The position numbers were made by a program, and so were the translations under genes. DNA of 64,000 nt from a virus. Its lineage: Duplodnaviria; Caudoviricetes. The notes below the pieces were generated by a model. It made no database searches. It had not been told where the DNA came from and saw only the letters and a list, made by a program, of their open reading frames with translations. The DNA is taken from positions 1-64,000 of the IMG/VR virus record IMGVR_UViG_3300043821_000026, one strand, 5' to 3'. Position 1 is the stretch's first letter, and each line of letters begins with the position of its first letter. This document shows, one piece after another, positions 41,341 through 53,079 of this stretch.

Positions 41341-42606
41341 ATGGCAGATGTAGCTAATAAACAGAAAATAAATTTAGGTACTGTTAAGGGGGATGATGGT
41401 AACATATACGTTCCTACCTTTGATGGTACAAGACTTAATTTTATTAAAAAACATAATCCACCTGAAGAAACAATTCAAGGTATGGATTTAAAAGGTCAAC
41501 AAGGAAATCAAGGTATTCAGGGTAACCCACCTGCTATTCATGGTACTTTAGATTCTCCATCTAAATTACCTACTTCTAATAATAAAGATGGTGATATTTA
41601 TTTAGTCAATGATGGGGTTACTCAAGGAATAGTATATCAATGGTATGAAAACGCATGGCATAATGTAGGTAATATTGTAGGACCACAAGGTGAACAAGGA
41701 CCTATGGGTACTAGTTATGCATTAGATAATTTATTTACATTGTCTGTAGATGATAACGGTGATTTGTATGTAATATATCCTACAGATAGTAAATTAACTG
41801 ATAAAAATTTTAGCTTCACTAAAGATGGCGATTTGTATTTTATATTAGACCCAGAAAATGGAGATTCCGCTACAAAATTATTTTTAGGTAACGCTAAAGG
41901 ACCTAAAGGTGATACTGGTATATCTATTAAAGCAGATAATTTTTATTATTTCACGATGGATTCAGATGGTAATTTATATGTTGTAGATGATAACGCTAAT
42001 GATTTTGGATACGACCCAGCAACAGGTAATTTGTATAAAAATTATACAGGAACTAATCCTATACTTATAGGAAATGTTCGTGGACCTAAAGGTGATACAG
42101 GAAATAGTTTAATTCATGCTGCAATTGTTACAGAATTACCAGACCCAAATTCGGCTGATATTAGTACTTTATATTTTATTAAAAATAGTGCTTCATCAGG
42201 AACAGACCAATATGATGAATATATTCTTGTTGATAATAACGGAACTAAAACATTTGAACAATTAGGAACTAAACAAATAGATTTGAGTAATTATTTTACT
42301 AAAACTGAAATAAATACTATGTTAGGTAGTTATTTATTAAAAACAGATAATATATCTGATAGTAAAATATTAGTTACTACAGAAAATTATGGTGCTGGAT
42401 TAACTCAAAACCAATTTAATGCTTTTGTATCTTCAGATATATTAACAGTTAAATCTACATTAACAAATAAAGCGAATAGTAGTGATGTTTATACAAAAAC
42501 ACAAGTAGATGCTATGTCTAGTGGTAAGGCTGATAAAACTGATGTATATTCTAAGGCTGAGATTGATGCTTTACTTGGTACAGCTAATGATATTATAACA
42601 GGGTGA
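41341..42606 (+). CDS. Fibre stalk protein A1 (short collagen-like GXY hinges, YTKTE repeats)
   Basis: GQQGNQGIQG, GPQGEQG and GPKGDTG motifs. 'IVTELP...LYFIK...YDEY...FEQLG' domain. KADKTDVYSKAE repeats. Confidence 0.7.
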   Translation: MADVANKQKINLGTVKGDDGNIYVPTFDGTRLNFIKKHNPPEETIQGMDLKGQQGNQGIQGNPPAIHGTLDSPSKLPTSNNKDGDIYLVNDGVTQGIVYQWYENAWHNVGNIVGPQGEQGPMGTSYALDNLFTLSVDDNGDLYVIYPTDSKLTDKNFSFTKDGDLYFILDPENGDSATKLFLGNAKGPKGDTGISIKADNFYYFTMDSDGNLYVVDDNANDFGYDPATGNLYKNYTGTNPILIGNVRGPKGDTGNSLIHAAIVTELPDPNSADISTLYFIKNSASSGTDQYDEYILVDNNGTKTFEQLGTKQIDLSNYFTKTEINTMLGSYLLKTDNISDSKILVTTENYGAGLTQNQFNAFVSSDILTVKSTLTNKANSSDVYTKTQVDAMSSGKADKTDVYSKAEIDALLGTANDIITG

Positions 42607-42612
42607 TTAATT

Positions 42613-51062: not shown

Positions 51063-51063
51063 T

Positions 51064-53079
51064 ATGACAATTAGAAGCGAACTAATATCACAACTACAAA
51101 ACAAAGGAATGAATGTAGACACATTATTAAATGGAGAAGATAAACAAAATGTTAGTTTATTTAAATTAGTTGATTTAGTCGCTAAAATTCCATCTAAATA
51201 TAATATAGAAATTTCTAAAACTCCTGAAGTTTTATACTCTCCTGATACTATAGATAATTATAAACTAGTACATTTAGAAGAGTTGATACAAAATCTACAA
51301 ATAAGATTAAGTAATACTTTATTAATAAAAGGTATTACTGATATTACTTACATGACTTCATTAACAAAATTAATAGAAAAAATACAATATATTGAACTAG
51401 CTTTACCAGTTACTATAGAAATAGTTACAGCTCCTCAATCTTTAAATATTAATGAACAAAGTACTATATCTGCTAAACTAAGTTCAGATACAACTATATT
51501 ATCTGATAAAACTGTAGTACTTAAATGTGATAATGTTAAAATAGGACCACAAACACAAAAAACAAATAGCAAAGGTGTTGCTACATTCGTAATTTCAAGC
51601 ACAGATGCAGGAACTTTTAAATATACAGTAGAATTTACATCTATAAACGAATATGCTAGTCAAACATTAGATATTAATATTACATATAAAAAATTAACTA
51701 CTACTATTATACAATCTGTACCTGATACAATTCAAGCTTATACTGATTTTACAATTACAGCTACATTAGGACAAAAAATAAATGATGGAACTATTACTAT
51801 ACATATTGGAAATGATAAATATACTGGTACGCCAATTGATGGAGTATTTAGTAAAACAATAACAAAAGAAGTATATAGCGTTGGTACATATAGTATTTAC
51901 GTTGAATGGAGTGGTGATGATACTTATCAACAACTTCAAACAATTAGTAAAACAGTTTCAATTCAAAAAAGTAATAGTTCAATAAACTTTAATCTTAAAA
52001 ATTCAACAATATCATTAGCAAATCAAGCAAGTACAACAATTACTGCAAGTGGAATTGGAGAAATTTATTTATACGATAAGATAAATGGTACTAATACACT
52101 TATTACTCATGCACCAAATTCTGTAAGTGTAACTCGAAGTTTTACAGATGGTACGCATACTATAACAGCTACATCTTCTGGAAATCAATCATATAATGGA
52201 GATACAGCTACAGGAACTATTTATGCTTATACATCGATACCAGTAAATACCTCTCTATCTCCATCACAAGGAAGTATTACTCTTGGTCAATCTATAACAC
52301 TATACGCATCTGTAAGCCCTTCAGTATTAGGTACTGTAACATTTAAAGATAATCAAAATAGACTTAATCAAACTGTAAGTCTATCTAATGGTAATGCTAC
52401 AATTTCATACACACCAGCTAACACTAGTAATAATACATTTTATGCACAATTCAATAATTCGGGTGTATATTACGCCAATAATCAAGCAAATACTTCAATT
52501 AGTATTAACGAACCAATATCATATGCAAAACCTACTTTAAATATTACTTATAATAGTAATGATTTATATTATAAAAAAACATGCACTTTTACTATTACAT
52601 CAAATGTTAGTGGTTTATCATATAGTGTTGATGGTAGTAATATTAATGGTAATACATTTAGTAAAACTTTCTCTTCTGCTGGAAATATTACAATTAACGT
52701 AAAACAAGTAGGAAGTATACAAACTGGAAATACTATATATACCGGAGGTAGTGCCTCTATTACCATAACAATTAATAAATTACCTATATATATAACACCT
52801 ACATCAGATGATTCATGGGTAACAAGTTCTGTAGATAAATATGGTTGGAATTACTATATAAGAGCTACTACTATAGATGGTGCTCCTTTAAGTGGATTAA
52901 CATTCTTTTGGGTATTTAGTAGTGGACATTCTGGCTATGTAACTTGTGATACAAATGGATATATAGGTATTGGATTAAAGGGTACTACTAATCATACATA
53001 TAACTTTGATATAAGTAGAGATGAAGATAATAATTATCTTTATACTAGCTTACATAGACAAATAACAATTAAATATTAA
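51064..53079 (+). CDS. Adhesin head B4 (two docking motifs + tandem Ig-like domains)
   Basis: 'LISQLQNKGM...SLFKLVDLVAKI' and 'LSNTLLIKGI...SLTKLIEKIQYI', followed by about five Thr/Ser-rich Big-like domains. Confidence 0.7.
   Translation: MTIRSELISQLQNKGMNVDTLLNGEDKQNVSLFKLVDLVAKIPSKYNIEISKTPEVLYSPDTIDNYKLVHLEELIQNLQIRLSNTLLIKGITDITYMTSLTKLIEKIQYIELALPVTIEIVTAPQSLNINEQSTISAKLSSDTTILSDKTVVLKCDNVKIGPQTQKTNSKGVATFVISSTDAGTFKYTVEFTSINEYASQTLDINITYKKLTTTIIQSVPDTIQAYTDFTITATLGQKINDGTITIHIGNDKYTGTPIDGVFSKTITKEVYSVGTYSIYVEWSGDDTYQQLQTISKTVSIQKSNSSINFNLKNSTISLANQASTTITASGIGEIYLYDKINGTNTLITHAPNSVSVTRSFTDGTHTITATSSGNQSYNGDTATGTIYAYTSIPVNTSLSPSQGSITLGQSITLYASVSPSVLGTVTFKDNQNRLNQTVSLSNGNATISYTPANTSNNTFYAQFNNSGVYYANNQANTSISINEPISYAKPTLNITYNSNDLYYKKTCTFTITSNVSGLSYSVDGSNINGNTFSKTFSSAGNITINVKQVGSIQTGNTIYTGGSASITITINKLPIYITPTSDDSWVTSSVDKYGWNYYIRATTIDGAPLSGLTFFWVFSSGHSGYVTCDTNGYIGIGLKGTTNHTYNFDISRDEDNNYLYTSLHRQITIKY

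Follow-up and report, generated by a model that had tools for sequence, protein, structure and literature searches.

Organization of the fibre and adhesin gene array

The window analysed here comprises the first 64,000 nucleotides (nt) of a virus record of 138.5 kb (IMGVR_UViG_3300043821_000026; estimated completeness 95%, G+C content 27%). Between positions 41341 and 53079 it carries an array of fibre-type (A) and adhesin-type (B) genes, all on the + strand and ordered A1-B1, A2-B2, A3-B3, an IS200/IS605 insertion sequence (IS), A4-B4. The A and B genes of pairs 1–4 are separated by 6, 2, 3 and 1 nt, respectively, which bears out the layout given in a preliminary description of this DNA, where four A-B pairs had been read with gaps of 1–6 nt.

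The A proteins are fibre shafts or related to them. A1 (41341–42606; 421 amino acids, aa) matches the tail fiber family phrog_3904 (8.6e-14) and contains four short runs of collagen-like triplets, three YTKTE-type repeats and a C-terminal helix end of the form 'LG-x6-I', assigned to C-terminal class a1. A second shaft, A4 (50310–51062; 250 aa; phrog_3904, 4.1e-19), shares with A1 a domain made of a knob and triplets (BLASTP, 2e-23). These two belong to the tail-fibre family of PHROG 3904 type (knob and collagen-like triplets), to which A2 and A3 are linked solely via A1 and A4. A2 (45090–45386), a short fibre or adaptor protein, corresponds to the C-terminal part of A1 (residues 310–381; BLASTP, 4e-6) and terminates in ...MGE; its C-terminal class, a3, is shared with a 74-aa protein of locus L023. 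A3 (46239–47753; 504 aa) is a divergent fibre protein with a coiled-coil-like C-terminus, weakly related to A1 and A4 (BLASTP, ~1e-3). The kinship proposed earlier for the A proteins is thus clear for A1, A4 and A2 and merely weak for A3; A2, previously taken as a fibre like A1 and A4, is indeed related to them, but has just 98 aa, matching the C-terminal part of A1.

Within A3, positions 46561–47366 form a perfect tandem duplication of a 402-nt unit (Tandem Repeats Finder, 2.0 copies, 100%), adding 134 aa. The near-identical genome L002, which shares 99.3–99.7% identity with the window on both flanks, across 37–58 kb, carries a single copy of the unit. The duplication is either a very recent event or an assembly artefact.

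Behind a common N-terminal module, the B proteins differ in their heads. B1 (42613–44821) consists of one module copy of class b1 (42613–42750), a Big_1 domain, a PMP-repeat beta-helix (Pfam: Chlam_PMP, 1.9e-37; Beta_helix, 1.6e-29) and a C-terminal immunoglobulin (Ig)-like part. In B4 (51064–53079), two module copies (51064–51204 and 51274–51390; two domains by hidden Markov model, HMM) are followed by an Ig-like chain, with Big_3_5 (2.3e-19) and Big_1 identified by Pfam. B2 (45389–46237) combines a module containing a long loop insert with a solenoid resembling leucine-rich repeats (LRR). It has no Pfam matches itself; its relative P0028, 36% identical, matches DUF285 (1.6e-19) and LRR_5. 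The AlphaFold2 (AF2) model of B2, with a predicted local distance difference test score (pLDDT) of 73, places helices at residues 3–20 and 44–50, followed by a beta-solenoid, and its top Foldseek matches are all LRR proteins, none of them significant. Finally, B3 (47757–48635) carries two module copies (47757–47900 and 47955–48070) and a beta-rich head; the AF2 model of its intact form is of low confidence (pLDDT 43), with helices at 4–24, 35–43, 64–81 and 92–102. Of the head types assigned in the preliminary description, the beta-helix of B1 and the Ig chain of B4 are confirmed by these matches. The LRR head of B2 finds support in the domains of P0028, but neither in a Pfam match of its own nor in a significant Foldseek match, and the lectin-like fold of B3 is not verified at this pLDDT.

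B1 and B3 are frameshifted in this assembly, a detail absent from the preliminary description, and intact forms exist elsewhere. In B1, a short G run near 43050–43056 has one base too many, which splits the frame; the base is missing in L002, the frame picks up exactly where the beta-helix entry motif goes on, and P0004 represents the intact form, 98% identical. B3 is split by two 1-nt indels near 48036 and 48234, its intact form being the 292-aa P0001 of L002. L002 has 1-nt indels of its own, including a 1-nt insertion that splits the lysin gene at a position matching 40802 of the window, so that real decay is no more likely than an assembly error.

A helix-loop-helix module at the start of every B protein

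All four B proteins start with a helix-loop-helix of about 45 aa (~44 profile positions), found by HMMER in two copies in B3 and B4 and in one copy in B1 and B2. We built leave-one-gene-out HMMs of the module and scored them against the six-frame translation of the 138.5 kb genome, cut into 1612 pieces. The held-out proteins B1–B4 were recovered with E-values of 6e-7, 0.028, 0.023 and 0.003, respectively, each ranking right after the B pieces used in the model; for B2, one extra piece of B3 also stood ahead. With the full profile, no further copies were found in the genome. The helical motif noticed earlier at the start of the B proteins is therefore a real common element: the N-termini align significantly, both with the held-out models and in the profile search of a protein library described below. 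In the AF2 models, each copy folds as a long helix joined by a loop to a short one, with moderate confidence for B2 and low confidence for B3.

The module has no counterpart in Pfam, NCBIfam or the PDB. PHROGs returned only weak matches to it, at about 1e-3, and in the ESM Atlas it matched only unnamed viral clusters. Neither the module nor the pairing was found described in the literature searched, which included the MSTV1 paper (PMC11375127).

The module of B1 is 48–53% identical to those of three proviruses (L024, L027 and L028) and 21–34% identical to the other five copies of its own virus. As it is nearer to the proviruses than to the copies of its own genome, the junction classes are old.

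Heads are exchanged behind the module

Between the window and L002 there is only one strongly divergent stretch, and it falls within B2 (45586–46046 in the window, 8204–8619 in L002). Residues ~66–220 of B2 are there ~50% identical in the two genomes, while A2 and the module do not differ, and the break comes about ten residues past the module. At least three B2 alleles exist: that of the window (also found in P0005), that of P0003 and that of L002, the last being nearer to P0003.

The same pattern holds across the family. A module profile of 12 sequences was scored against 1.84 billion representative proteins with a cut-off of E<=1e-3, and 380 representative clusters matched. Among the 153 proteins on file, the module begins within the first 30 residues in 144. 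The domains behind it (n=123) include Big_1 (28), Big_3_5 (24), LRR_5 (17) and LRR_8 (6), and further CarboxypepD_reg, ConA-like, Cna_B, beta-helix and others. Mean identity of the module is 50%, whereas any BLASTP match is seen in just 15% of head pairs. Receptor-binding proteins classically show just such a combination, one end being conserved for anchoring and the other variable for binding. We define the B-type family, of at least 380 clusters, by a module at or close to the N-terminus with a variable adhesin part behind it, and all four B proteins of the array belong to it. The suggestion that heads are swappable behind a conserved N-terminus has thus proved right, both family-wide and in B2 of two nearly identical genomes.

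The module in archaeal and bacterial viruses

The module is present in 21 of 314 Methanobacteriaceae genomes and on two contigs of 48–50% G+C. One of these contigs, with 50% G+C and likely to come from a bacterial phage, has a fibre gene that encodes repeated DDVYSK units and whose stop codon overlaps with the B-type start. By tblastn and profile search, the module was also found in the Clostridioides phages HGP05, phiC2 and phiCD6356. Against isolated phages, neither the region (megablast) nor the N-terminus of B1 (tblastn) gave any match. Searches of viral contigs with A4 and with a 745-aa downstream protein did not find relatives, and the search with the lysin returned one fragment, 24% complete, which terminates at the lysin and is without the module.

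In phiC2, proteins p31 and p32 match the module profile with 6.2e-11 and 1.2e-6. Both are annotated as hypothetical (L070, 3814–5459), carry the module after a shared 'GSPF' pre-motif and are encoded in the interval from the tail fibre gene to the holin. They are likely to be unrecognised receptor-binding proteins of this C. difficile phage. In Geobacillus virus E3, the annotated tail fiber protein GP48 contains the module at residues 407–445 of 557 (2.4e-11), between its shaft and a small terminal domain. This position at the junction of shaft and head supports A and B belonging to one fibre. The module is not confined to archaeal viruses, the setting considered in the preliminary description: phages of Firmicutes (phiC2, Geobacillus virus E3) have it as well.

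Two further ideas concerning these phages were examined. That GP48 is a homologous A-B fusion was rejected, its shaft not being significantly similar to A1 or A4. A split module, in which the 'IG' end of A would correspond to the pre-motif of phiC2 and E3 and docking would complement a divided domain, is at most a lead: a profile of six A C-termini gave no significant match, the best (1.6) being at the expected place in phiC2 p31.

A and B genes are adjacent and their junctions match

We compiled a pairing table from distinct B-type genes of Methanobacteriaceae loci, metagenome contigs and the four pairs of the window. In 30 of 36 distinct cases, a fibre-type gene precedes the first B-type gene at a distance of -4 to 15 nt. 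These upstream genes encode collagen triplets or YTKTE-type repeats, or merely a coiled coil of 71–101 aa, and their products terminate in a helix with a 'hydrophobic-G' motif. A-type proteins of 71–101 aa contain little beyond the two end motifs, which fits an adaptor role.

A end and B module classes coincide: there are six a1-b1 pairs, 19 a2-b2 pairs (plus one with an unclassed B) and two a3-b3 pairs, with no cross pairs. In the array, A1/B1 is of a1/b1 and A2/B2 of a3/b3, while A3/B3 and A4/B4 have junctions of their own. That pairing is kept in distant relatives is supported by these first B genes (30 of 36), with their classes matching; second B genes, locus L037 and phiC2 depart from it, as detailed below. 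Complex prediction with three A1 C-termini and three B1 N-termini, using alignments of four rows each, gave a score of 0.24 against a mark of 0.32, which speaks neither for nor against binding. Read-through fusion of A and B was rejected as a general mechanism: only pairs 1 and 3 are in frame.

Small proviruses offer a view of the other end of A. In L025 (1771–3126), L026 (4805–6391), L035 (6594–7989) and L036 (1958–3032), a protein X precedes the A-type gene, and the last part of X together with the first part of A resembles one repeat unit that is contiguous inside A1. In L031–L033, X and A are fused in one gene. This suggests fibres built of serial proteins, split within a repeat unit.

Genomic setting and host

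Nearly all genes in the first 73 kb of the virus are on the + strand. Family scans identified a contractile-tail gene set, with a major head protein, a tail sheath, a Baseplate_J protein and a sheath-initiator-like protein; the virus also encodes a protein of tape-measure size (2628 aa). Two giant structural genes flank the fibre array, one of 3778 aa (27571–38907) and one of 2924 aa (57978–64000, extending to 66752 in the genome). Both have Big_3_5 and CLIPPER-type domains; neither has the B module.

Immediately 5' of A1 lies, on the + strand, the gene of a PeiW-like lysin of 336 aa (40321–41331) with a pseudomurein-binding repeat (PF09373 PMBR, 4.6e-12). The protein, likely a PeiW-type endoisopeptidase, is placed within the tail and fibre module and not in a lysis cassette, and could act as a virion-associated wall-degrading enzyme. 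Its PMBR repeat suggests that the host belongs to the Methanobacteriales. The TnpB of the inserted IS has its nearest relatives in rumen Methanobrevibacter, two genomes of which carry copies 66–67% identical to it. Together, the lysin and the TnpB relatives make rumen Methanobrevibacter very probably the host, in agreement with what had been assumed before.

The IS200/IS605 element (48678–50226) comprises tnpA (48678–49082; 134 aa) and tnpB (49087–50226; 379 aa), identified through Y1_Tnp and OrfB_IS605 (PF01797, PF01385 and PF07282) on the near-identical genes of L002. Between B3 and A4, it is followed right after tnpB by a perfect hairpin with a 9-bp stem (about 50230–50255; 48678–50262 with the element), and sits at the identical place in L002. 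The sole long gap of the array is a 270-nt non-coding stretch between B1 and A2 (44822–45089). A minus-strand open reading frame (ORF) of 80 aa (44754–44996), called in L002 too, overlaps it. A promoter may lie in this gap; alternatively, A2 may be what is left of an A gene that was once longer.

A model of the receptor-binding array and its alternatives

With its new connector, the array constitutes a modular system for receptor binding. We propose that a contractile-tailed virus of rumen Methanobrevibacter recognises its host through this array of four two-gene units. In each, A would be a shaft or short adaptor without a distal head, ending in the helical 'hydrophobic-G' motif, and B an adhesin, with the conserved helix-loop-helix in its first ~45 aa and a freely exchangeable binding head thereafter. 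The module of B would join the C-terminal tip of its own A, itself presumably plugged into the virion, making A the stalk and adaptor and B the exchangeable tip. Four diverged junction classes, one per pair, would keep the four fibres from mixing, and the virion might display up to four different adhesins. On balance, we lean towards B docking on A.

A far-reaching version of this model is more tentative. It would see at least three, possibly five, orthogonal connector classes, each made of an A end and a B module, that allow four fibre-adhesin combinations per virion without cross-pairing, while heads, shafts or pairs move as units among methanogen viruses and some phages of Firmicutes. Such a class-coded docking system, common to archaeal and bacterial viruses, is conceivable, though we would not expect it to hold in full.

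Several observations weigh against docking. The module is internal in nine of the 153 proteins on file, and tandem and internal copies are frequent; some internal copies come after LRR or Ig domains or sit within a tail fibre. Another B-type gene precedes 21 B-type genes, in an A-B-B' order that is seen in the commonest small proviruses. Locus L037 encodes a protein of 761 aa that starts with LRR_5 and has the module internally, with no A-type gene upstream and a second B behind, and in phiC2 the tandem B-type genes p31 and p32 do not begin directly after the annotated tail fibre gene. A partner for the N-terminus of A was looked for and not found, and the frames of B1 and B3 are disrupted in this assembly. 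The A-B-B' and B-B orders argue against a strict one-to-one code; of the two-part adaptor code put forward in the preliminary description, swappable heads and a class-matched A partner stand, and strict pairing does not. Class matching itself could be plain linkage, since the two motifs lie within about 250 nt. The A-B-B' orders, the L037 protein and the tandem and internal copies also mean that the module could be a general neck or oligomerisation element, instead of or besides docking. Taken to its end, this would have A and B attached to the baseplate separately, the module being an intramolecular neck or oligomerisation element (e.g. a trimer of hairpins) and adjacency mere synteny; the module of GP48 in Geobacillus virus E3, a tail fibre made of a single chain, would suit this view. 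On the other hand, B proteins have no other conserved part able to anchor them, and A proteins are headless, some having only 71–101 aa. Across distant lineages the first B-type gene stays at most 15 nt behind a fibre gene, and the A-B class match is without exception in 27 classed pairs. Separate attachment is hence a serious alternative, albeit one that we hold to be rather unlikely.

In another reading, the four pairs would be alternative cassettes, one in use at a time and switched either by recombination, in the manner of the Mu G segment and the R64 shufflon, or by phase-variable frameshifts. A2 does resemble a C-terminal fragment of an A1-type gene, and the single-base indels of B1 and B3 fall in short runs of the same base. 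But all genes share one strand and have their own start codons, and no direct or inverted repeats flank the cassettes, those seen in 40000–54000 being only weak and at chance level. The other 1-nt indels of L002, including that in the lysin gene, suggest assembly errors and not a switch. No site-specific recombinase was found among the window ORFs scanned by family, a scan that did not cover the other 74 kb. We regard such switching as very improbable. The same applies to the notion that the B proteins are not virion components at all, but adhesin-like cargo destined for the surface of the host cell. Adhesin-like proteins of Methanobrevibacter typically have Big_1, PMP-repeat and beta-helix domains, and in domain content B1 (Big_1, PMP-repeat, beta-helix) and B4 (Big_3_5) resemble them. 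However, inspection of the B N-termini (by eye, without a predictor of secretion signals or surface anchors) revealed no hydrophobic leader like that of a signal peptide: hydrophilic helices of the module are found in its place. Moreover, the genes lie inside the tail module between the baseplate and other large structural genes, B genes of small proviruses stand directly before the lysin, and the module occurs within an annotated phage tail fibre, all of which makes a cargo role highly doubtful.

To our knowledge, almost nothing is known about host recognition by viruses of gut and rumen methanogens. A short, searchable module with a matching fibre partner marks hundreds of candidate receptor-binding proteins in metagenomes. 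It permits comparison of host range from strain to strain, as with the replacement of the B2 head between genomes that are ~99.5% identical, and makes binding tests of recombinant heads on Methanobrevibacter cells possible. If the junctions are indeed class-specific, they would constitute a natural toolkit of orthogonal connectors for chimeric fibres. The sharing of the module with Clostridioides and Geobacillus phages, in turn, is relevant to how genes pass between archaeal and bacterial viruses in the gut.

Comparison with known receptor-binding systems

A conserved anchor with swappable heads is a well-known principle in bacterial phages. The connector and its class structure, together with its use in all four pairs of a single methanogen virus and its occurrence in both archaeal viruses and phages of Firmicutes, appear to be undescribed in the literature searched. 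The closest cases are those bearing the module itself: GP48 of Geobacillus virus E3 and p31/p32 of phiC2 have, like B, a module of ~40 aa and are encoded in the region from tail fibre to lysis genes. They differ from the array in that the module of GP48 is internal to one polypeptide and that phiC2 has two module-bearing genes in tandem; outside the module, these proteins show no significant similarity to A1 or A4. Their records give the module no function.

In gene order, the array resembles the tail fibres of T2/T6/S16 type, where the adhesin gp38 attaches by its N-terminal part to the tip of the gp37 trimer and varies in its receptor-binding part. There too, a fibre gene is followed by an adhesin gene, but as one pair instead of four, and attachment to the tip, as known for gp38, is a proposal in the array. 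No gp38 family of Pfam or PHROGs is among the matches of any B protein. In the lactococcal phages TP901-1 (BppU/BppL) and p2 (ORF18), a conserved N-terminal helical part plugs into the upstream baseplate or fibre protein, and heads are swapped between phages. A conserved N-terminal anchor and exchangeable heads are thus common to both systems, which differ in folds and families, in the bacterial host and in the single type of receptor-binding protein per lactococcal virion.

Several different receptor-binding proteins per virion, as we propose for the array, are known from multi-tailspike phages such as CBA120 (TSP1-4), G7C (gp63.1/gp66) and Klebsiella phage phiK64-1, which join them via short conserved N-terminal domains. 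In these phages, the tailspikes are docked to one another as a branching tree; in the array, each adhesin comes with an upstream shaft gene of its own, and the connector is unrelated.

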